Assembly (NCBI GenBank): GCA_964500725.1
Contig: CAZCNP010000005.1
Location: 6,348-70,347, forward strand
Source of the DNA: an uncultured Gammaproteobacteria bacterium
Lineage (GTDB): Bacteria; Patescibacteriota; Microgenomatia; Daviesbacterales; UBA10151
DNA length: 64,000 bases
Direction: 5' to 3'
The position numbers and the translations under genes are program-made. The notes beneath the pieces were generated by a model. That model was given only the letters and a program-made list of their open reading frames with translations, did not search any database and was not told where the DNA came from. This document shows positions 1 through 55,399 of this stretch, in pieces. Each line of letters begins with the position of its first letter. The first letter of the stretch is position 1.

Positions 1-603
1 AAAGGCATTCATTTTATGGATGCAGGGACCTCAGGAGGAATTGAGGGAGCCAGAAATGGGGCTTGTATTATGGTTGGTGGGGAAAAGCAGGACTTTGAGA
101 GGGTAGAGGAGATTTTTAAAGCAGCAGCAATGCCTAATGCTTATGCTTATTTGGGTCCAACTGGAGCAGGACATTTTGCTAAAACTATCCATAATGGAAT
201 TGAGTATGGAATGATGGAGGCAATAGGTGAGGGGGCAGCAATCTTAAAAACCTCCCAATTTCCCTATGATTTAAGAGAGGTTTTCAGAATTTATAATACA
301 GGTTCTATTATAGAATCTAGACTGGTTGGTTGGACTTTGGCAGAGTTAAAAAATGATCCAGAACTAAAAAATATTTCCTCAGTTATAGGTTCTGGAGGTG
401 GGGCAGGTAAAACTAAAGGGGAGGGTCATTGGACTGTTGAGCTTGCTAAAGAAGTGGGGGTAGATGTTCCAGTAATTGAGGCATCAGTACAAGTTAGAGA
501 AAACTCAGATAAAGATGAAGAAAATTCCCCAAATGGATTTAGAAATAAAACTGTAGCTGCCATGAGATGGCAATTTGGCCAGCATCCAGTTAAGAAAAGC
601 TAA
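1..603 (+). CDS. gnd: 6-phosphogluconate dehydrogenase (decarboxylating), C-terminal portion. 5' end cut by window edge (the frame is open upstream of the first ATG at 16).
   Basis: Translation KGIHFMDAGTSGG...NGIEYGMMEAIGEG matches conserved 6PGDH motifs (GxHFxDxGxSGG; IEYGxM). Adjacent to zwf. Confidence 0.8.
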   Translation, partial: KGIHFMDAGTSGGIEGARNGACIMVGGEKQDFERVEEIFKAAAMPNAYAYLGPTGAGHFAKTIHNGIEYGMMEAIGEGAAILKTSQFPYDLREVFRIYNTGSIIESRLVGWTLAELKNDPELKNISSVIGSGGGAGKTKGEGHWTVELAKEVGVDVPVIEASVQVRENSDKDEENSPNGFRNKTVAAMRWQFGQHPVKKS

Positions 604-1099
604 ATTGGCCTATTTTTTTCCACTCTGATACTTCTCCGCCTTTTACTAAAGTGACTTTTTTTACTTCAAATTCTGCTGATTGGTCTCTGCCTATTCTTGT
701 AATAATCTTTTCCTTTACTTCATTGGGGAAGATACCATATAGAAGACTTAAATGTGGCATATATGGTGGAATATCCTGTTTCCCAAAGATCTCTTTGGCT
801 TTGTTATGTAAAGCTAGAAGTGGTTCAGACTTTTCTGCTCTGACAAAAAGAGTCCTAAAATGAAACTCCTCATAATCAATTTCACCTAACTTAATAGTAA
901 AAGGCTGCTGTCCTTGGGCCAATTGTTTTGTTTTCTTTATTGCTTCTTCTTCAGAAAAATCAAACTCTCCAAGCAGGGTTACATGGGGTTGAAAAACCGG
1001 AGCGTTGTTTTCTTTAGCAAGCTTTTTTACAAGATTGGTAAATCTTTCATTTGCCTCTCCTGCTGGTAACAGCCAAAGGGAATAGCCTTGTGATTTCAT
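590..1099 (-). CDS. 2H phosphoesterase superfamily protein (LigT/ThpR-like cyclic phosphodiesterase)
   Basis: Two H-x-T/S-x motifs (PHVTLLGEF and PHLSLLYG) spaced as in 2H family enzymes; 169 aa. Confidence 0.6.
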   Translation of the reverse strand: MKSQGYSLWLLPAGEANERFTNLVKKLAKENNAPVFQPHVTLLGEFDFSEEEAIKKTKQLAQGQQPFTIKLGEIDYEEFHFRTLFVRAEKSEPLLALHNKAKEIFGKQDIPPYMPHLSLLYGIFPNEVKEKIITRIGRDQSAEFEVKKVTLVKGGEVSEWKKIGQFSFS

Positions 1100-1926
1100 A
1101 GAAGTTCTAATATCTTGCTATGCAGAATATTATTTGATGCCAGCATTTCTGATTGGAATACATCCCATTTATCTCCAGCAGGTGTAGTTACTTTGCCTCC
1201 AGCTTTTTCTATCAGCAAAGAAGATGCTGCCACATCCCATGGTTTTAGACCTGAGTGGAGATATATATCTATTCTACCTCTGGCAAGACTAGCAAGATCT
1301 GCTACAGCAGAACCCATACATTTTATTTGCCTAACATGGGTTGCGATATTACCAAGCCATCGTACAACATCAAGTCTTTGTTCCAATACCCAACCCCAAT
1401 CACAAGCAAGCACAGTTTCGTTTAAATCTTTTGTAGTGGAAACATGAATGGGTTTTCCGTTTAAAAATGCTTCTTTTTTCTCTGCCTGTGCCCAATATAG
1501 ATCATTTGTGATAGGAGCATATATAACTCCCAATTTAGGTATGCCTTGATCTACCAAACCTATTGATATAGCAAAGTTTGCATTACCTCTGGAAAAGTTA
1601 ACTGTCCCATCAAGAGGGTCAATAATCCATAAATTGTCTAGTTCCTTAAAAGATGAATAATCTTTAGGGGAGGCCTCTTCACCTAAAATGGGGAGCGTAG
1701 GATATTGTTGTTGTAAGTTTTCTTTCAGAAAAGCTTCTACTTCCAAGTCTGCTTGAGTTAAAACATCCACCCCACCTTTTGATCTGGAAGTAAATTTACC
1801 TGAAGTAAAATATTGTTTTAAAATATCTCCTGCCTGAGCAGCTAATTTTAATGAATATTCCCTAGCCTCATTTAGATCAATTTCTTTTGTCATATTCTGC
1901 AAAATTCCATAGATGGTTCTAACCAT
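1096..1926 (-). CDS. inositol monophosphatase / FBPase family protein
   Basis: WIIDPLDGTVNF motif and overall IMPase fold signature; 276 aa. Confidence 0.75.
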   Translation of the reverse strand: MVRTIYGILQNMTKEIDLNEAREYSLKLAAQAGDILKQYFTSGKFTSRSKGGVDVLTQADLEVEAFLKENLQQQYPTLPILGEEASPKDYSSFKELDNLWIIDPLDGTVNFSRGNANFAISIGLVDQGIPKLGVIYAPITNDLYWAQAEKKEAFLNGKPIHVSTTKDLNETVLACDWGWVLEQRLDVVRWLGNIATHVRQIKCMGSAVADLASLARGRIDIYLHSGLKPWDVAASSLLIEKAGGKVTTPAGDKWDVFQSEMLASNNILHSKILELL

Positions 1927-3341
1927 TTTCTTCCATCTTGTTCTATTAATTCATCTGCTGCTTTAGGTCCCCAAGTTCCAGGTTTATATATGTGAGGTTT
2001 TCTTTTGCTAGCAGTCAGAGGATCTATAAATGCCCACTGGGCTTCTACTTCCTCTGCATCATTAAAGAAAGTATGATCACCTCTGATGGTATCAGCCAGC
2101 AACCTTTCATAAGGATCTGGGATATAGTGGCTGTGAGGATCAATTCTATAACAATACTGCATATACTCTGAATCAAAGCTAATTTGGTGCCCTGGCTTTT
2201 TGGCTAATATTTTAAAAACAATTCCCTCATTTGGCTGGATTCTATAAATTAAAACATTTGGCTCATCCTCATGACCCATCCCCTTAAATAGATGATTAAT
2301 AGGATTTTTAAAAACTATGGAAATTTCTGTAGCTGTTTGCTGAAGTTTCTTTCCGGCTCTTATATAGATTGGCACATCGGCAAACCTTTCAGATTTTACA
2401 AAGGTCTTTAAGGCATAAAAAGTATCTGCTGTAGAGTCTGGGGATACATTTTCCTCTTTTTGGTAGTTTTCATATTGACCAAAGACCACCTTTTCTGGTA
2501 AAGGAGTTAAGCTTTTTAAAATTTTGAGTCTTTGAGCTGTAATAGCCTTACTGGTAAATTTTTCTGGAGCATCCATGATGGAGAAGGCTAACATTTGCAG
2601 CTGATGGTTTTGTCCTACATCCTTTAAAGCTCCAACAGCATCATAATATCCACCTCTTTTGCCTATACCAAAATCTTCTGAGGCTGTAATTTGGATATGA
2701 TCAACAAATTGTTTGTTAACCAAAGGCTCAAAAATATCATTAACAAACCTAAAAGTTAGGATGTTTTGCAGGGTTTCTTTGCCCAAATAATGGTCTAGCC
2801 TGAAAATTTGGTCTTCTGTAAAGTAGGTAAGCAGTAGTTTATTTAAGGCTTTAGCAGAAGGCAAATCATTACCAATTGGCTTTTCAATCATCAGCCTGAC
2901 CCAGCCTTTATCTTGCTTGTTTAAGTTATTGTTCTGCAAGTGTTCTAAAACAGAATGATAAAGCTCTGGATAAGTAGCCAGATAAAAAATTCTGTTGCTT
3001 TCTTTAAGGGTTTTTTTGATCTTCTCATAAAGGTCTTGTTCCGTGATATCACCGTTTATATATTTAAACCTATTACACAGCCTTTTAAATACCTCCTGCT
3101 TGATTTCATGTTTGTGATGAATATTTTCCAGGTGCAATACGTAATCCAGATAATCCCGAAACTCTTTTACAGACATTTCTCTTCTGGCTATGCCTGCAAT
3201 ACTCATATCTGAGGCAAGTAAACCTTTTTCTTCCATATCATAAAGGGCTGGAATAAGTTTGATTTGGGCTAAATTGCTGGTAATGCCAAAGATAATCAGA
3301 GCATAATCTTCCATAGGGACATTTTGGCTTATTGACACCAA
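1890..3341 (-). CDS. zwf: glucose-6-phosphate 1-dehydrogenase. True start may be the internal Met (MEDYALIIFG) about 9 codons downstream.
   Basis: RIDHYLGKE active-site motif, IFGxTxxLA N-terminal NADP motif, 483 aa. Confidence 0.9.
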   Translation of the reverse strand: MVSISQNVPMEDYALIIFGITSNLAQIKLIPALYDMEEKGLLASDMSIAGIARREMSVKEFRDYLDYVLHLENIHHKHEIKQEVFKRLCNRFKYINGDITEQDLYEKIKKTLKESNRIFYLATYPELYHSVLEHLQNNNLNKQDKGWVRLMIEKPIGNDLPSAKALNKLLLTYFTEDQIFRLDHYLGKETLQNILTFRFVNDIFEPLVNKQFVDHIQITASEDFGIGKRGGYYDAVGALKDVGQNHQLQMLAFSIMDAPEKFTSKAITAQRLKILKSLTPLPEKVVFGQYENYQKEENVSPDSTADTFYALKTFVKSERFADVPIYIRAGKKLQQTATEISIVFKNPINHLFKGMGHEDEPNVLIYRIQPNEGIVFKILAKKPGHQISFDSEYMQYCYRIDPHSHYIPDPYERLLADTIRGDHTFFNDAEEVEAQWAFIDPLTASKRKPHIYKPGTWGPKAADELIEQDGRKWLEPSMEFCRI

Positions 3342-3366: not shown

Positions 3367-3972
3367 ATGCTAAAACCCTTTGCAGGCAGGCCTGCTGAAA
3401 AAATGAAAGAGGTCTTGATGCATCCAGATGCCCCAGGTCCCCAAATCCACTATTACATGATAAGAGGGGGAGTAGATAAGAAAAATGTTACTGTTTGGGA
3501 AACTGGAACTGTAGGAGGGGAATATATTAAAACTTATGGGCATTACCATGTTGGGGAGCTTGATGAAACCTATACAGTGCTGTTGGGTGAAGGTGTAGTT
3601 CTACTTCAAACTAGGAAAAAAGATGCAGCAGGGGACCCTATAGATGATGAGATAGAAAGTTTTTATGCTATTACTGTTAAAAAAGGCGATAGAGTTTTTA
3701 TTCCTTCTGGCACAGGGCATTTAGTGGCAAATACTGGTAAAACATGGTTGGTAACTGAAGATGATTCACCTGTTAATTTTGAAGAAAAGGATCCAGTTTC
3801 TTTGCCAGGTCATGCAGATTACTTAGCTGTGCAGAAGATGCAGGGTTTTGCTTATTATGTAATAGAGGAAAATGGCAAGCCAACCTTAGTTAAAAATCCC
3901 AAATATAAAACAGTCCCGGAAGCTCAGTGGTTAACTCCTGAAGAATATACTCAAAAACACCCAAAACCCTAG
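3367..3972 (+). CDS. pgiA: cupin-type (archaeal-type) glucose-6-phosphate isomerase
   Basis: TYGHYH metal-binding motif, LLQT, IPSGTGH, ADY and C-terminal YVIEENGKPTLVKNPKYK align closely with Pyrococcus/Thermococcus cupin PGI (TKGHFH...IVIEENGEVKVVDNPRWKK) from memory. Context with zwf/gnd. Confidence 0.7.
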   Translation: MLKPFAGRPAEKMKEVLMHPDAPGPQIHYYMIRGGVDKKNVTVWETGTVGGEYIKTYGHYHVGELDETYTVLLGEGVVLLQTRKKDAAGDPIDDEIESFYAITVKKGDRVFIPSGTGHLVANTGKTWLVTEDDSPVNFEEKDPVSLPGHADYLAVQKMQGFAYYVIEENGKPTLVKNPKYKTVPEAQWLTPEEYTQKHPKP

Positions 3973-5318: not shown

Positions 5319-5365
5319 GTGATGAGGTAGTATATCAAAACCTGTATAGCTATGCTCGTGTGGAA

Positions 5366-5608
5366 CTAAACAGAATTAACTGAAGCTTCTAGTTTATCAA
5401 ATCTATCATTAATATCTCTGTGTTTTTGGACATGTATATCCTGCTCCTGTCTCATATCTTTTACTTCTGTAAACACTGCATCGAGCTTTTCCAAAACATC
5501 AAGTCGTAATTGATGCATCTCTTCCCGTAGTGCCTGAATATCTGCATCTGCTTCTTCTCTGGTTTTAAATGAGTTTACTAGTAACCTGATATCCTTAGAT
5601 GTAAGCAT
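5366..5608 (-). CDS. small coiled-coil protein (paralogous family member 1 of 3)
   Basis: 80 aa heptad-rich. C-terminal TEVKDMRQEQDIHVQKHRDINDRFDKLE aligns with TVKSYADSYKINKHNIERVDTRLTTVEEEL of ORF 11463..11726. Confidence 0.4.
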   Translation of the reverse strand: MLTSKDIRLLVNSFKTREEADADIQALREEMHQLRLDVLEKLDAVFTEVKDMRQEQDIHVQKHRDINDRFDKLEASVNSV

Positions 5609-21426: not shown

Positions 21427-22155
21427 GTGATGTACAAGTTGACAAAATTTTTCTACTTTGCTAGAGTAAAAAGAATGTCCAAATCTTATCTGCCAAAAGC
21501 CTCCACAATCTTAGTAAGCGCTTTTCTATTTACTACTCTTGTTTCTCCTGCTTTTGCTGTTGGTATATCCGCCACAGTGGAGGGTCCTGAAGTTAAACTA
21601 GATGCTAGCTCAGCTGCAGCTGTTAGGGCTAAATTGAACCAGAAAGCAGAGATAAGAAAAGAAAATATTCAGGAAAAAATAGCCTCCAGAACCGCTGTTT
21701 TGAAAGAAAAGCTTGCAGCATTCAAGGATCAACAAAAAGCCCAAATAGCAGAAAGAATAAATGCTAACCTAAATGCTATTAATCAAAACCAAACATCACA
21801 GATGCAAAGACATCTAGATTTAATGGCTACCATATTAGGTAAATTGGAATCCCGCGTAAATGAAGGCGCGCCCGATGTCAAGAATTCAACTGCAGCCCAA
21901 GCTGCAATTACCGAAGCAAAGGATACCATCGCTACTGCCTCTGCTGCAGTATCTGAACAAACTCAAAAGACCTATACAATACAGGTTACAACTGAAAGTA
22001 GGATTAGGACAGCTGCCAAAACTCAAAGAGACAAACTGCATAAGGATTTACAAACTACCAGAAAAGCAGTGATAGATGCCAAACAAGCAGTGGCAAATGC
22101 TATCAGAACTGCTAAAGCAGAAGTAAAGGAGGCAACCAGTAGTGGACAACAATAA
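21427..22155 (+). CDS. secreted alpha-helical/coiled-coil protein
   Basis: Signal peptide (LVSAFLFTTLVSPAFA) then Ala/Lys/Gln-rich helical repeats; 242 aa. Confidence 0.35.
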   Translation: MMYKLTKFFYFARVKRMSKSYLPKASTILVSAFLFTTLVSPAFAVGISATVEGPEVKLDASSAAAVRAKLNQKAEIRKENIQEKIASRTAVLKEKLAAFKDQQKAQIAERINANLNAINQNQTSQMQRHLDLMATILGKLESRVNEGAPDVKNSTAAQAAITEAKDTIATASAAVSEQTQKTYTIQVTTESRIRTAAKTQRDKLHKDLQTTRKAVIDAKQAVANAIRTAKAEVKEATSSGQQ

Positions 22156-24863: not shown

Positions 24864-24988
24864 GGAATAGTTAGTTTACTGAAAAAACGCGGATTTTTCT
24901 AGTACTAAAAGTCTTAAAAGGAGCGGGGTATGTAAATTATTTTGAACTAATCCTAGTTAATTACCTTCATTTTAGCAATTTAACGGGG

Positions 24989-25435
24989 ATGTATAATTAT
25001 CCTATGAAGTTAAAATCATACGTTAAACCCAAACCCTGGTTTTTTACATTCATTCCTAAACTGAATACATACACTGCTAATTCAATATATCCCTACATCT
25101 TTCTTCCAAAAGATATCTATATAAATTTAAGCACAAACAACCCTAATCCATATTATGTAGCCCTTCTTATACACGAAGAAACACATTATGTAAGACAAAA
25201 ACATGTTGGTGTATTTATTTTTGCACTAAAATATTTATTTAATTCAAAGTTCCGTAAAAAAGAAGAGTTATTAGCAGCAAAAGAAGCTATTAAATACCTA
25301 AAAAAACAAGGTATTTCTTTTAACTTTAATGAGCATGAGAGGAATTCATCCAATTATTTATATTTATACCCAATTTCAAAATACTATAACTATGATGAAG
25401 AAAAACTTCAGAAAGTATGGAGTGAGGTTGCGTAA
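24989..25435 (+). CDS. small HExxH-motif protein (putative minimal zinc metallopeptidase), very AT-rich codon usage
   Basis: LLIHEETHYVRQ HExxH motif; 148 aa; Y/N/K-rich composition unlike neighbours. Confidence 0.35.
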   Translation: MYNYPMKLKSYVKPKPWFFTFIPKLNTYTANSIYPYIFLPKDIYINLSTNNPNPYYVALLIHEETHYVRQKHVGVFIFALKYLFNSKFRKKEELLAAKEAIKYLKKQGISFNFNEHERNSSNYLYLYPISKYYNYDEEKLQKVWSEVA

Positions 25436-25555
25436 TTTGAGTAGGAAATTATCTGATAGTTCGATTCCTATGTCTTCGAAATTTAGTTTCATATAGCTTA
25501 CTCATTAGTAGGAATGGGGTTGCTTACTTCCAAATTTATAAGGCAGCTGTGTATA

Positions 25556-25948
25556 TTAAAGATCAGATTGGGGAGTAAAGTGTAACTCAGGAGGAATGTC
25601 TACCCTGGCTTTTTCTTCCAGTGTTTCCAGCCTTTGTTCTGCTTTCCTGATATTAGTATCATTTGCTTGATATGAATCAGCATAACCTTTGATTGTGCTT
25701 TCAAGCTCCACTGTTGCTGCAGTACTAGCATCAACTCTTTCATTTAATCTCTTAAGTCCTGTATCTGGATCATCTAATTTTTTACCTAAATCATCAAGTT
25801 TTTTATTCATTACAGATAACTGATCTCTCATCAGTTGAATTGAAGCTCCTTGGTTTGTTCTATTTATCTCTGACAAATCAACTTTATGTTTTATAATCTC
25901 AAGAAGTTCTTTAAGCCCATCAATTTTTTTGGAATCATCATCTGTCAT
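25556..25948 (-). CDS. small coiled-coil protein (paralogous family member 3 of 3)
   Basis: 130 aa. Shares TIKGYADSYQAN...RLETLEEK...IPPELHFTP block with ORF 11463..11726. Confidence 0.4.
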   Translation of the reverse strand: MTDDDSKKIDGLKELLEIIKHKVDLSEINRTNQGASIQLMRDQLSVMNKKLDDLGKKLDDPDTGLKRLNERVDASTAATVELESTIKGYADSYQANDTNIRKAEQRLETLEEKARVDIPPELHFTPQSDL

Positions 25949-26202
25949 TCTTTAATAGTAATTAATCGAATAATAAAAAACAATTAGGATTTTATATATC
26001 AAACTAGCCAAAATCTGGTAGGTTAGTTGTTTAAGCTTCTTAAGCGATCTTAATTTTTCTTGAAGCGGGTGAGGCCTACCCGCATCGCTTCGCATAGCGA
26101 GGCGGGCAGGGGAGTAAAGAAACTTACTTTTTCTTTCAGAAAAAGAGCGGACAGCTTCCCACTACGTGGGGCGCATTCCAACTACCTACCTACCCTTTAA
26201 AC

Positions 26203-26232
26203 AAAAAACCGATCTCAAGGATCGGATTTTTT
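26203..26232 (-). terminator. bidirectional rho-independent terminator (A6-CCGATC-TCAAG-GATCGG-T6) immediately 3' of tRNA-Gly
   Basis: aaaaaaCCGATCtcaagGATCGGatttttt seen directly. Confidence 0.65.
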
Positions 26233-26240
26233 GATTTAAG

Positions 26241-26312
26241 AGCGGGTGAGGGGAGTCGGACCCCTTACGTCCACTTTGGAAAAGTGGCATTCTACCGGTG
26301 AATTACACCCGC
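26241..26312 (-). tRNA. tRNA-Gly (anticodon TCC)
   Basis: Reverse complement GCGGGTGTAATTCACCGGTAGAATGCCACTTTTCCAAAGTGGACGTAAGGGGTCCGACTCCCCTCACCCGCT; anticodon loop TTTCCAA. Confidence 0.9.
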
Positions 26313-26342
26313 ATTATTTCTTTGTCAAATAACTTTTATTTA

Positions 26343-26492
26343 ACTCCTAAGTGTTTTATCGAAACTTCGTTTCGTGGCATTCTTCCTGGGATAACTTCTA
26401 AATTCTAAGATGTATGCTGAACGCATACTTGTTTGTTGTTATCCCGTTAAAGTCGGTTTACGACTTTAACCCCCTGAATTACACCCGCATTC
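26343..26492 (-). other. tRNA-Gly-derived structured element: copy of the tRNA-Gly 5' acceptor/D-arm (GCGGGTGTAATTCA) and D/anticodon junction (GAATGCCAC), interrupted by about 100 nt forming several perfect hairpins
   Basis: Minus-strand read: GCGGGTGTAATTCAGGGGG-[GTTAAAGTCG/CGACTTTAAC 10-bp stem]-[GGGATAAC...GTTATCCC 8-bp long-range stem enclosing GTATGC/GCATAC hairpin]-AGGAAGAATGCCAC-[CGAAAC-GAA-GTTTCG]. Does not fold as a complete tRNA. Confidence 0.35.
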
Positions 26493-26532
26493 AATAGTGA
26501 TATTTTAATTTTAAATGGAAAAAAACGCAAGA

Positions 26533-26862
26533 TTAGAGTAGTTCTTCAATCTTTGCTGCTAGGATAAAATCATTTTCAGATAAGCCTCTGATATGGTGTG
26601 TAGTTAAAGAAATTACTACTTTATTGTAGTAAATATACATATCTGGATGATGCCCCTCTTCCTCAGCTATCTCTGCAACTCTATTTACAAACTGCATAGC
26701 CTCTTTAAAATCCTTAAATTTAAACTCATGTTTTATGGTTCTATTACTGGATACCTCCCAAGGAAGTTTTAGCTCCTTGAGGAATTTCCCATATTCCTCA
26801 GGTTTTAATGGGGGAGTCCCTATCTCACAAGGCACACATTTTTTATTACTTAATGAATCCAT
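26533..26862 (-). CDS. phhB: pterin-4a-carbinolamine dehydratase (PCD/DCoH)
   Basis: EEGHHPD signature ([EDKH]-x-H-H-P) and overall PCD length (109 aa). Confidence 0.85.
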   Translation of the reverse strand: MDSLSNKKCVPCEIGTPPLKPEEYGKFLKELKLPWEVSSNRTIKHEFKFKDFKEAMQFVNRVAEIAEEEGHHPDMYIYYNKVVISLTTHHIRGLSENDFILAAKIEELL

Positions 26863-27967: not shown

Positions 27968-28042
27968 TGGTCGGGGTGGAGAGAATTGAACTCTCTACAT
28001 CTGCGTCCCAAACGCAGCGGTCTACCGATGACCTACACCCCG
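27968..28042 (-). tRNA. tRNA-Pro (anticodon TGG), CCA encoded
   Basis: Reverse complement CGGGGTGTAGGTCATCGGTAGACCGCTGCGTTTGGGACGCAGATGTAGAGAGTTCAATTCTCTCCACCCCGACCA; anticodon loop TTTGGGA. Confidence 0.9.
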
Positions 28043-28187
28043 AAATCCCTTTATGTGGGCTAACTTCAATTATTATATTTCGCCTTCGGCAATAAATTGC
28101 TGTTAACCCGTTGAATTATCATTTAGATAATTCAACAGTCTACCATAAGTAGACAGATAGTAAAAGAGATGTTAAACTCCCAAAGTT

Positions 28188-53158: not shown

Positions 53159-55399
53159 ATGAAGCAGATTATCGCAACAATCTTGATAATTGTCCTGATC
53201 ATTAGTCTGATTGTTGCTGCTTTCACTATCAACCAGGTTGAAAATGAAAGCCAGAGACTCAAATCAGACCTCCAGCACCGTTCAACCTTGCTTGCAGAAA
53301 GCTTAAGGGAAACCATTGAGCCTAATTTTATAAATAAATCAGACGTCTATCTGCAGAATGTGCTGGAAAGGTTCACTACCAAAGAAAGATTGGCAGGACT
53401 AGGGGTATATGACAATAAAGGTAATATGATTGTTGCCTCATCTACAGTAACCGAAGCAACTTTATCCGCCCAGGAAGTAATTGCCAATACCATGGATGCT
53501 GATAAAGCAACCGGAGATTATATTACTTTAAACAATAGAAATATATACATGCTGGCCGTTCCTCTGCATGAAAATAAAAGTGTGGTGGGAGCAATGATGG
53601 TGATGCAAAATGCAAGCTATATAGATGACCGCTTAAATGAAATATGGAGAAATAACCTCTTAAGGCTGGCAATCCAGGCAGGACTGCTTTCTGTAGCAAT
53701 ATTGCTTTTGATTAGATGGCTTATCTACACACCAATAAAAAATCTGGTTGAGTCTTTAAAAACTGCAAGAGCAGGAGGCAGTACGCTAAATTCTAAAAGA
53801 ACAACCAACTCATTATTCTTCCGTCCGCTTGTCAATGAAATTACTAATATTAGAAGAAGTCTGCAAGAGGCCCGTTCCACAGCAAGCGAGGAAGCAAGAC
53901 TCAGGCTAGATGAAATTAATTCCCCATGGACAGCTGAAAGGCTAAAGGAATTTATCAAGGATATTTTAAAAGATAGAACTATTTTTATGGTTTCAAACCG
54001 TGAACCTTATATTCATACCAAAGATGGAGGAAAAATCAATTATTACATGCCTGCAAGCGGACCTATAACAGCAATTGAACCTGTAATGCAGGCTTGCGGT
54101 GGAGTCTGGATAGCCAATGGAAGCGGGGATGCGGACAAGCTGGTTGTTGACAAGTACGACAAGATTAAGGTTCCGCCGGAAGAGCCAAAATACACCCTCA
54201 AACGTATCTGGCTAAGTGAGGAAGAAGAATCAGGATATTACTTTGGCTTTTCAAATGAGGGATTATGGCCGCTTTGCCATATCGCTCATAACCGGCCGAC
54301 CTTTAAAAAAGAAGACTGGGACCAATACCAAAAAGTTAATCAAAAATTTGCTGATACTATCGTTGCTGAAATAAAAAATCAAGAAAGACCAATTGTTTTA
54401 GTACAAGATTATCAGCTTGCTTTAGTTCCTAAAATGATTAAGGCGCAAAAACCAAGCGCAGTAGTAGGCCTTTTTTGGCATATTCCTTGGCCCAATCCTG
54501 AATCCTTCAGTATATGTCCTTGGAAAAAAGAAATTCTTGAAGGGATGTTAGGAGCAGACCTAATAGGCTTTCATACCCAGCTTTACTGCAATAACTTTAT
54601 TGAAACAGTAAGCCGGGAACTTGAGTCTTTGATTGACTTTGAGCGGTTTACAATTACCCGAAACAATCATGAATCCTCAATCAAACCTTTCCCAATCAGT
54701 ATTGCATTTTCAAACGTCAATGGTTTGGATCAGGAAACAATGGAAAAGAACAAACAGGAATCAGACAATCTAATCAAAAGCTTGGGCATTAAAACAAAAT
54801 ATATCGGACTCGGAGTAGATAGGCTTGATTACATCAAAGGAATCCCAGAGCGTTTAAAGGCAATTGAGATCTTTCTAATAAAAAATCCTAAATATAAAAC
54901 CAATTTTACCTTCATTCAGATTTCACCTCCTTCAAGAACTAAGATAAAAAAGATGAGGGAGCTGGCAGAAGAAGTAGAGAAGGAAGTTGAACGGATAAAT
55001 GCTGCATTTAAAATAGGCAACTGGAGACCTATTGTATTTTTGAAAAAACACCATGATCATAAAGAGCTTCAGAAGTTTTATTCAGCCGCTGATTTCTGCC
55101 TAGTTACATCTGTACATGACGGGATGAATCTGGTAGCAAAAGAATATGCAGCAGCCAGATATGATGAAAGAGGAGTTTTAGTGCTTAGCCAATACACAGG
55201 CGCCTCACGGGAACTTAAGGAAGCGTTGATTGTAAACCCTTATAATGCAGAACAAACAGCAGATGCTATACGGGAGGCTTTGGAAATGACTCCAAAAGAA
55301 CAGGCAAAAAGAATGAAGGAAATGAGAGAAACTATTAAAAATAACAATGTTTACAGATGGTCTGCAGAACTGCTAAGGACAATTGTGAATTTAGGATGA
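53159..55399 (+). CDS. otsA: trehalose-6-phosphate synthase (GT20) fused to an N-terminal membrane-anchored sensor-like module (TM - ~140-aa extracytoplasmic domain - TM - HAMP-like linker)
   Basis: C-terminal 470 aa carry GT20 motifs (GGVWIANGSGDA, LWPLCHIAHNRP, LVQDYQLALVP, VGLFWHIPWPNPE, HDGMNLVAKEY). N-terminal 270 aa have two TM helices (res 5-23, ~165-190). Confidence 0.8.
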   Translation: MKQIIATILIIVLIISLIVAAFTINQVENESQRLKSDLQHRSTLLAESLRETIEPNFINKSDVYLQNVLERFTTKERLAGLGVYDNKGNMIVASSTVTEATLSAQEVIANTMDADKATGDYITLNNRNIYMLAVPLHENKSVVGAMMVMQNASYIDDRLNEIWRNNLLRLAIQAGLLSVAILLLIRWLIYTPIKNLVESLKTARAGGSTLNSKRTTNSLFFRPLVNEITNIRRSLQEARSTASEEARLRLDEINSPWTAERLKEFIKDILKDRTIFMVSNREPYIHTKDGGKINYYMPASGPITAIEPVMQACGGVWIANGSGDADKLVVDKYDKIKVPPEEPKYTLKRIWLSEEEESGYYFGFSNEGLWPLCHIAHNRPTFKKEDWDQYQKVNQKFADTIVAEIKNQERPIVLVQDYQLALVPKMIKAQKPSAVVGLFWHIPWPNPESFSICPWKKEILEGMLGADLIGFHTQLYCNNFIETVSRELESLIDFERFTITRNNHESSIKPFPISIAFSNVNGLDQETMEKNKQESDNLIKSLGIKTKYIGLGVDRLDYIKGIPERLKAIEIFLIKNPKYKTNFTFIQISPPSRTKIKKMRELAEEVEKEVERINAAFKIGNWRPIVFLKKHHDHKELQKFYSAADFCLVTSVHDGMNLVAKEYAAARYDERGVLVLSQYTGASRELKEALIVNPYNAEQTADAIREALEMTPKEQAKRMKEMRETIKNNNVYRWSAELLRTIVNLG

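Follow-up and report, generated by a model that had tools for sequence, protein, structure and literature searches.

The locus described here is a tRNA-Gly(UCC) gene and its surroundings in a 64-kb stretch of contig CAZCNP010000005.1 (assembly GCA_964500725.1), hereafter called the window (64,000 nucleotides, 36.5% GC). The gene occupies positions 26241..26312 (start 26240/26241) on the minus strand. Coordinates are those of the plus strand throughout, while upstream and downstream refer to the tRNA's own, minus strand. ARAGORN calls the gene Gly(tcc), in agreement with the initial annotation, which was made from the letters alone, and the Rfam tRNA model gives it 56.7 bits against a gathering score of 29; with its cloverleaf and a score above the Rfam threshold, it is a canonical bacterial tRNA. 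The CCA end is not encoded, the 3' end running into CTTAAA. Incomplete copies of the gene lie on both of its sides: upstream, a copy of the 5' part that is interrupted by perfect hairpins, and downstream, a hairpin-rich block that ends with a copy of the 3' end. Neither copy is called as a tRNA by the Rfam search, even at E ≤ 10, and the flanks of the other four tRNAs in the window are devoid of such self-copies. Taken alone, the window carries a modest message, that of one normal tRNA-Gly amid relics. The value of the locus is that it points to a recurrent architecture, apparently undescribed, made of a nuclease gene, hairpins and a partial tRNA, which is found beside tRNA genes of other members of the Candidate Phyla Radiation (CPR)/Patescibacteria. 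The source genome itself, judging by the genes of the window and their nearest homologues, appears to be of CPR/Patescibacteria origin, probably from the Microgenomates group.

Upstream, nucleotides 1-29 of the tRNA are repeated, and an insertion interrupts this copy exactly in the D-loop. The first part of the copy (26475..26491, minus strand) is an exact 17-nt repeat of 26299-26315, AATGCGGGTGTAATTCA, and covers positions -3 to +14 of the tRNA. This 17-mer is present exactly twice in the window, for a chance expectation of 0.00 (100 shuffles). The repeat noticed in the initial annotation is therefore real, although the 18-nt string quoted there is exact over 17 nt only (three leader bases plus tRNA positions 1-14) and its coordinates were off by 1-2 nt. 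An 86-nt insert follows (26389..26474, minus strand), delimited by gap-tolerant alignment, folding and a repeat finder and made of nested perfect hairpins, after which the tRNA sequence resumes with CAGGAAGAATGCCAC (26374..26388, minus strand; gap-tolerant alignment), which matches tRNA positions 15-29 at 13 of 15 nt. The chain formed by tRNA positions 1-14, the 86-nt insert and CAGGAAGAATGCCAC obtains a score of 29.25 in the gap-tolerant alignment, as compared to a maximum of 23.4 among shuffled sequences (0/300). The second tRNA-derived piece that had been recognised at the outset (AGAATGCCAC, 26374-26383) is thus part of a copy longer than first noted, extending to position 29. All the stems of the roughly 100 nt of perfect hairpins first described are present according to the repeat finder and the fold: a 10-bp stem (26446-26470), a long-range 8-bp stem (26388-26395 with 26438-26445), a 6-bp stem (26412-26428) and a second 6-bp stem, CGAAAC-GAA-GUUUCG (26360-26374). 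The latter hairpin is included in a 61-nt spacer (26313..26373, minus strand) that separates the partial copy from the intact tRNA and whose position, by analogy, is that of a nuclease open reading frame (ORF) in the relatives described below.

A weak promoter-like sequence, TTGCGT-17-TAAAAT, can be read upstream of the partial copy (26502..26530, minus strand). It matches the consensus at only 8 of 12 positions, which is why it has no entry in the promoter scan. A 15-mer found within it, TTAAAATTAAAATAT, is common to the region upstream of tRNA-Gly in a relative, L091 (E 0.11, weak evidence; L-numbers designate the contigs used for comparison). No terminator was found between the upstream element and tRNA-Gly, and no separate promoter for the element was seen. 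Two independent short-read Logan contigs from the same strain, L081 and L082, correspond to positions 26287-26540 of the window, and both stop at the same base inside tRNA-Gly (...GGTAGAATGC); this shared end point suggests that a branch of the assembly graph begins there.

Folding of the upstream element yields a z-score of -4.0, and that of leader plus tRNA together a z-score of -6.5. In the minimum-energy fold, the GCGGGUG and GGGGG segments of the leader pair with the CACCCGC and CCCCU 3' strands of the true tRNA. The leader could therefore, by this prediction, compete with the folding of the tRNA or present RNase P with a second site. Since the minimum-energy fold pairs the leader with the tRNA 3' strands (z = -6.5), it is plausible that selection keeps the leader locked in local hairpins. 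These properties, together with the four perfect stems and the continuity between element and tRNA, speak for a functional structured RNA kept for itself, either a pre-tRNA-Gly leader with a role in regulation or processing, or a small RNA derived from the tRNA, the latter having been proposed in the initial annotation. Comparison with other genomes, however, makes this explanation unlikely. A metagenome scan using the first 42 nt of tRNA-Gly as the query returned 20 additional loci. The identical 72-nt tRNA-Gly is found in 19 further contigs whose flanks are unrelated, so that the window flanks cannot be taken for a leader or trailer conserved with this tRNA; altogether, the element is not conserved in 22 other contigs with this tRNA-Gly (identical in 19). 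No covariation supports the fold because no homologue of the insert was found, and the predicted competition is thermodynamic only. Rfam 15, searched for tmRNA, RNase P, SRP, 6S, ribozymes and group I introns, gave matches above the gathering score in the window for tRNAs only, and a search of 25900-26600 at E ≤ 10 gave nothing credible besides the tRNA. The covariance-model scan for tmRNA, RNase P and other families that had been suggested for this DNA thus came back empty, and SRP, 6S, tmRNA, RNase P and ribozymes were discarded as identities for the hairpin element and for the GC-rich downstream block. A separate small RNA gene finds no more backing in the flanks, which do not follow the identical tRNA, than in Rfam or in the signals around the element, for which neither a separate promoter nor a terminator before the tRNA was found.

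The initial annotation also raised the possibility of a miniature mobile element, that is, a non-autonomous 86-nt hairpin cluster landed in a duplicated tRNA fragment. The insert is indeed cleanly bounded within the D-loop, a similar long perfect hairpin (GTTGAATTATC-TAAAT-GATAATTCAAC) stands upstream of tRNA-Pro in the window, and tRNA-like copies that bear hairpins without any ORF exist in L108, L111 and L117. Against this, the insert occurs once in the 64-kb window and was not met again in the 106 comparison loci, its 25-nt hairpin has zero matches in IMG/VR, and its borders show neither terminal inverted repeats nor a target-site duplication. Copy number therefore gives this origin no support, and it is quite improbable.

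Immediately 3' of tRNA-Gly lies a bidirectional intrinsic terminator with T-runs on each strand (26203..26232, stem 26209-26225). Past this stem begins the downstream block (26064..26195, minus strand; about 130 nt, about 47% GC), which was delimited by its repeats and by folding (z = -3.4 to -3.9). The GC-rich double hairpin of the initial annotation is indeed present. The block contains an inverted near-copy of the tRNA 3' end (GGGTAGG, 26189-26195), internal hairpins and a nested hairpin, CCTGCCCGCC-TCGCT-ATGCGA-AGCGA-T-GCGGGTAGG (26075-26110), and it ends with an exact 11-nt direct copy of the tRNA 3' end, CCTCACCCGCT, 166 nt downstream of the tRNA's own 3' end. This copy lies at 26064-26074 rather than at 26062-26072 as first reported. 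With a chance expectation of 0.18 (it was reached in 2 of 100 shuffles), it is only moderately significant by itself. The idea that the block is a full decayed paralogue of tRNA-Gly, suggested by an alignment made by eye, was dropped, since gap-tolerant scoring leaves only the 11-mer (1/300 shuffles). A role as a primer-binding site, the plus strand being complementary to the tRNA 3' end, was rejected because complementarity stops short of CCA, and a GCGAAGCGAYG motif shared with a 3' block of L016 proved too weak (3 occurrences in 1.5 Mb versus about 0.7 expected by my own estimate).

When 79 tRNAs in 107 sequences were scanned, the layout of the downstream block was found after four other tRNAs, in three other genomes: tRNA-Pro and tRNA-His (L016, 1290-1440, minus, and 5358-5520, plus), tRNA-Thr (L029, 7464-7630, plus) and tRNA-Glu (L055, 7064-7215, plus). 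Each tRNA is followed, beyond a spacer or terminator, by a short stretch of its own 3' region in inverted orientation; nested GC-rich hairpins then fill about 100-130 nt before a direct copy closes the block. In these four loci the direct copy is 17-21 nt long and runs from the T-loop to the 3' end; the inverted copy spans the T-loop and T-stem in L016 and L029, and the acceptor side in the window. The fold z-scores of these blocks range between -3.0 and -4.4. No Rfam family was found for the four blocks, nor for the nuclease units in L048, L055 and L089 that are described below. The 10-mer CCTGCCCGCC recurs beside tRNAs or nuclease units in L085, L086, L091, L111 and L117, most of its 13 occurrences being tRNA-proximal, and the nested CCTGCCCGCC...GCGGGTAGG hairpin of the window has formal counterparts in L117 (CCTGCCCGCC...[GTCGCCTCAGGCGAC]...GCGGGCGAGG), in unit 1 of L048 and in L085/L091. 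The block accompanies an upstream (5') unit in L055 and in the window and occurs alone in L016 and L029; it may be a part of the same element or the product of a second, independent process.

Integrase-borne islands at tRNA genes have attL and attR sites that duplicate the tRNA 3' end. One could thus imagine that integrases repeatedly integrated and lost islands at the 3' end of tRNA-Gly, leaving a displaced 3' copy as a generic att-type scar, and that the upstream copy is an unrelated local duplication. The direct copy of the 3' end, which bounds a 166-nt segment (11 nt, 26064-26074), is what such islands display. In addition, 12- and 14-nt copies of the 3' end bracket cargo genes 3.0 and 1.6 kb downstream of the tRNA in the relatives L090 and L096, and an ORF close to tRNA-Gly that encodes an HExxH protein is unusually AT-rich. 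However, no tyrosine or serine recombinase turned up in or beside the bounded segment among the neighbouring ORFs tested (HExxH, coiled-coil, FKBP, GSDH, PCD). Moreover, integration at a 3' end yields no 5' partial copies, simple att duplication does not predict the nested hairpins and the inverted copy of the 3' region seen in the five independent 3' blocks (about 98-166 nt), and the 5' copy with its hairpin insert in the D-loop fits one architecture specifically, that of the GIY-YIG units. An origin of the locus in att scars alone thus appears improbable. Compared with an integrase island, the window has the downstream direct copy in common and differs by the lack of an integrase, the small size of the bracketed segment (166 nt), and the additional inverted and 5' partial copies.

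The architecture in question is built around small ORFs (about 80-90 aa) that encode a GIY-YIG nuclease domain and nothing else. In 12 of 13 cases, the same order is observed: a partial 5' tRNA copy interrupted by GC-rich hairpins, the ORF, and, directly downstream of the ORF, an intact tRNA on the same strand. The units concerned are those of L089, L048 (two), L055, L107, L108, L109/110, L111-113, L114, L115/116, L117 and L118/119. For 11 of the 13 ORFs, tRNAs played no part in the search, and 10 of these fit. A tblastn search with the L089 ORF against loci fetched for unrelated reasons gave four more small GIY-YIG ORFs, three of which conform, two as tandem units at tRNA-Gln (L048) and one at tRNA-Glu (L055). 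Eight further proteins, sampled from two lists of homologues and chosen by the size of the surrounding sequence only, all conform (8/8). The exception is L052 (3965-4236), whose GIY-YIG-only ORF is not beside a tRNA and lies between the arms of a perfect 12-bp inverted repeat, CCCGTTAGAGAT / ATCTCTAACGGG. The units of L107 and L089 occupy the same tRNA-Gly as in the window.

Two subfamilies can be distinguished. In subfamily A (L089, L107, L108, L109/110 and L111-113), the copy retains the acceptor 5' strand and the D-arm, and an invariant palindrome, GTCGCC-YNA-GGCGAC (with only TA at its centre in L089), replaces the anticodon arm; the ORF starts at or near the T-loop and its stop abuts or overlaps the intact tRNA. 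Subfamily B (L048, L114, L115, L117 and L118) has a double hairpin in the D-loop or after position 10, TCGCC-N5-GGCGA and then CCYGCC-N5-GGCRGG, and its ORF starts close to the anticodon loop. In the five sequences compared, 100% of 55 cells of this double hairpin are paired, with two compensatory pairs, and on this comparison the hairpins are judged to be conserved as structure. Breakpoints in the relatives are concentrated in tRNA loops, the D-loop, the anticodon loop and above all the T-loop, and copies that resemble tRNA, carry the same hairpins and lack an ORF are present beside the units in L108, L111 and L117. The copy does not always match the adjacent tRNA: in L109/L110 (1440-2000), the one that precedes the nuclease ORF of L109 matches tRNA-Arg(CCG), the third tRNA downstream, two other tRNAs intervening, and in L111-L113 (1330-1500) the partial copy of L111 is without any match to the adjacent tRNA-Val(TAC).

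The L089 ORF corresponds to the GIY-YIG catalytic domain (Pfam PF01541, E 2e-18). A profile built from 38 of the GIY-YIG proteins has its best structural matches in 1ywl and 1zg2, both of UPF0213 (E 1e-13), then in the structure-specific endonuclease SLX1 (E 2e-6), I-TevI being only marginal (E 0.0095), which places the nucleases in UPF0213, with SLX1 as the nearest neighbour. Being about 80-90 aa long and made of the catalytic domain only, the relatives' proteins have no separate sequence-specific DNA-binding domain. A phage origin was discarded, four pattern scans of IMG/VR being all empty. A 2006 survey described a prokaryotic Slx1-like domain fused to a TrmH-type tRNA methyltransferase (PMC1564403), and a role of the nucleases at the RNA level is therefore possible.

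Relatives with the same tRNA-Gly provide an allele series. At a shared promoter block, TTGAAA...TAGAAT, empty alleles consist of the promoter, tRNA-Gly and CCA (L090, L096 and L103), occupied alleles of the promoter, a partial copy, the ORF and the tRNA (L107 and L089), and decayed alleles of the promoter, TAAGTTGATG, a GCGGGCCTGCCCGCC minihelix and the tRNA (L085 and L086). In L089, TAAGTTGATG abuts the start of the ORF. The partial 5' copies stand directly behind the promoter and measure 55 nt in L089, 12 nt in L104, and 5 nt in L085, L086 and L091, where they are joined to a CCTGCCCGCC minihelix; the 55-nt copy of L089 is followed by a 79-codon ORF (78 aa from the ATG) and then by the intact tRNA. 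Presence/absence polymorphism is therefore seen among relatives at this promoter, the window's own locus being represented by identical same-strain contigs only. The CCA end follows the same division: it is not encoded in any of the seven tRNA-Gly loci with a unit or remnant, window included, and it is encoded in 10 of the 11 distinct tRNA-Gly loci without one, the loci compared (L085-L107 and the window) not being phylogenetically independent. This difference suggests that the tRNA and its 3' flank were co-converted with the ORF. L085 and L086, which have the identical tRNA-Gly, were reached through a search with the neighbouring PCD gene, whose homologues are at most 64% identical in the genome scan and at most 75%, self excluded, in the protein search. 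An attempt to establish synteny through this gene was abandoned, since gene order is not kept in L083/L084 and only partly in L085 (tRNA-Leu, tRNA-Pro, PCD, tRNA-Gly).

With respect to this architecture, the window retains a partial 5' copy (-3 to +29) with hairpins inserted in its D-loop, an intact CCA-less tRNA and a 3' block with a copy of the 3' end. The anatomy of the upstream element is subfamily-B-like, with the 5' part of a tRNA, hairpins inserted in the D-loop, and the tRNA resumed as far as the anticodon stem; the spacer at 26313..26373 has the position that the GIY-YIG ORF has, by analogy, in L048, L055, L089 and L107-L119. Because this anatomy is combined with only 61 nt at the ORF position, I favour, with a probability of roughly 55%, the view that the locus belongs to the tRNA-riding GIY-YIG elements, for which phage T4 SegB offers a parallel, either as an ORF-less relic (a scar) or as a member that has no ORF. 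The arrangement itself is real and non-random, and the element of the window is degenerate, probably non-autonomous, and wrapped around a normal tRNA. Of the decayed integrative element envisaged in the initial annotation, comparison with relatives leaves standing a mobile relic at a partly duplicated tRNA, one that fits the GIY-YIG architecture and not a classical integrase island.

Several observations weigh against this interpretation. Neither a GIY-YIG ORF nor a coding remnant was detected in 26313-26500 by profile search (about 0 bits), and no GIY-YIG gene was found anywhere in the 64-kb window; a weak match near nt 55246 is spurious, as it falls within a 746-aa ORF that reads by eye, no family search having been run, as trehalose-phosphate-synthase-like. 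In the absence of a nuclease ORF, the link to the units is made by architecture and by one shared hairpin motif, CCTGCCCGCC. The upstream hairpins of the window have no sequence in common with the conserved hairpins of the ORF-bearing units, and the perfection of all four stems is unexpected under neutral decay. Beyond the 11-mer, the downstream block resembles the tRNA to no significant degree. The promoter assignment is weak, both for the TTGCGT-17-TAAAAT upstream of the copy and for any candidate in the spacer. The nearest PCD homologue is only 75% identical and synteny is partial, the same-strain contigs being identical to the window at the locus. Finally, homing by these nucleases is unproven, since the proteins are too small to have a DNA-binding domain that reads sequence.

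If the locus is nonetheless a relic of this kind, the following course of events can be proposed. A nuclease-driven insertion or gene conversion at the tRNA gene would have duplicated a part of the tRNA. The window would then once have contained the ORF, which would have been lost later, as in the gain-decay cycle of homing endonucleases. The target of the nuclease would be at the tRNA, the clustering of breakpoints in loops being reminiscent of the T-psi-C stem-loop in the site of T4 SegB. In its present state, the upstream relic probably forms a long structured leader on the pre-tRNA-Gly transcript, which RNase P would remove, and the perfect stems may persist by locking away the second acceptor 5' strand that this leader contains.

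A broader proposal, which I put forward tentatively and with less confidence than the relic interpretation of the window, is that CPR/Patescibacteria harbour an undescribed class of tRNA-riding selfish elements. Each would combine a minimal GIY-YIG nuclease of the SLX1/UPF0213 type, conserved palindromic hairpins and a partial tRNA copy that the hairpins disable and that puts the ORF under the tRNA promoter, and would carry a CCA-less replacement tRNA. The nuclease would be directed by structure (hairpin or cruciform DNA, or the T-arm of the tRNA gene) rather than read a sequence, its activity would generate the 5' partial copies and the inverted-plus-direct 3' copies observed at numerous tRNAs, and the window, a member without the ORF, would keep its hairpins for the sake of the pre-tRNA. 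A full-text literature search found no description of this tRNA-nuclease-hairpin arrangement, the library searched being limited and the result an absence of evidence. If the architecture holds, it would be an instance of a chromosomal tRNA gene of a bacterium colonised by a nuclease gene through partial duplication, and not by way of an intron or an integrase island. It would account for pseudo-tRNA fragments and odd GC-rich hairpins near CPR tRNA genes, and for a part of the assembly breaks and annotation difficulties; it would give a concrete role to the widespread, functionless ORFs annotated as UPF0213 or "GIY-YIG nuclease family protein"; and it would define a compact nuclease-plus-hairpin system with a targeting rule to be worked out.

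The closest known parallel is SegB, a free-standing GIY-YIG homing endonuclease encoded in the tRNA gene cluster of phage T4, which recognises 27 bp that include the conserved T-psi-C stem-loop motif and whose homing co-converts neighbouring tRNA genes, according to the abstract of the study (PMC2330249). As with SegB, the GIY-YIG gene of CPR is lodged among tRNA genes, the breakpoints fall in tRNA loops, often the T-loop, and the CCA-less tRNA appears to travel with the ORF in the manner of a co-converted neighbour. Unlike SegB, which belongs to the phage Seg family, the CPR proteins are about 80-90 aa long, comprise the catalytic domain only and are closer to UPF0213/SLX1, and the units are chromosomal, consistent with the empty IMG/VR pattern scans. 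Partial tRNA copies and conserved hairpins are without mention in the SegB abstract (PMC2330249), and the window, unlike the SegB locus, is without any nuclease gene.

The intervening sequences of CPR rRNA genes offer a second comparison. Some of these sequences, which are not introns, encode GIY-YIG proteins; short inserts (<200 bp, ORF-less) sit at the tops or bases of rRNA stem-loops, and the GIY-YIG ORFs are found in inserts other than group I or II introns (PMC11270868). The bacterial group is the same and structural RNA genes are hit in both cases, but the rRNA inserts are located inside functional genes whereas the tRNA inserts occupy non-functional partial copies beside an intact tRNA. 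That study leaves tRNAs unmentioned.

The empty, occupied and decayed alleles at one promoter are reminiscent of the life history of homing genes, and the window resembles a late, ORF-less stage of it. Homing endonuclease genes follow a cycle of gain, degeneration and loss, which is reportedly the subject of the Goddard and Burt model. Two features depart from this scheme: invasion leaves a partial duplication of the target and structured inserts, and the hairpins of the "decayed" window are perfect, not eroded. Repetitive extragenic palindromic (REP) elements, short perfect hairpins tied to RAYT transposases of the Y1 type, are similar in that perfect hairpins accompany a small nuclease gene, and the 12-bp inverted repeat that flanks the L052 ORF adds to the resemblance. 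They differ in the enzyme (Y1 transposase instead of GIY-YIG) and in lacking the specific link to tRNA genes seen here, and genome-wide dispersal of the hairpins is not part of the present evidence.

The two ORFs that neighbour the locus, neither of which is linked to the tRNA feature, were examined as well. The plus-strand HExxH ORF (24989-25435, 148 aa) exists as first described and is AT-rich (25-30% GC versus 36.5% for the window). It is however not the orphan it had been taken for, as its family comprises 205 cluster representatives at E ≤ 1e-3 and 100 at 1e-10, with a typical length of about 140 aa and H62, E63, H66, R89, E92 and E93 as invariant residues. Pfam, NCBIfam and PHROG gave no family at reporting thresholds, and only weak matches to zincin families (M48/Ste24, MPTase-PolyVal and M56) were obtained; the ORF appears to represent an uncharacterised family of minimal metallopeptidases. 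The other ORF (25556-25948) has generic coiled-coil matches only. It had been called a paralogue, and this does not hold, since no paralogy to the other coiled-coil ORF tested, 21427-22155, is detectable (E 0.36).

Some further observations concern tRNA genes of the relatives and of the window. The direct copies of the tRNA-Gly 3' end in L090 (12 nt, 3.0 kb downstream of the tRNA) and L096 (14 nt, 1.6 kb downstream) delimit segments 246-3258 and 474-2103 (oriented), respectively, which contain cargo ORFs, one with a P-loop (GAGKT) recognised by eye; no recombinase was recognised in this cargo by eye, no family search having been run. These bracketed segments may be small integrated islands. 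In L016, the region 3545-3767 (plus strand) matches a group I intron at 53.6 bits, for a gathering score of 50, beside a weak tmRNA/tRNA-like match, and may be an intron-containing tRNA of that genome. In the window, the AT-rich hairpin formed by GTTGAATTATC and GATAATTCAAC (28110-28136), the longest perfect one of its kind in the 64 kb, is 68 nt upstream of tRNA-Pro (27968-28042, minus strand) and resembles in form the 10-bp hairpin upstream of tRNA-Gly. The region 28043-28140 also contains, nearby, the hairpin TTGCC-GAA-GGCGA (28080-28092) and a stretch, GGTAGAC, that matches the D-arm of tRNA-Pro. Distinct perfect hairpins of at least 9 bp number five in the window, and two of them precede tRNAs.

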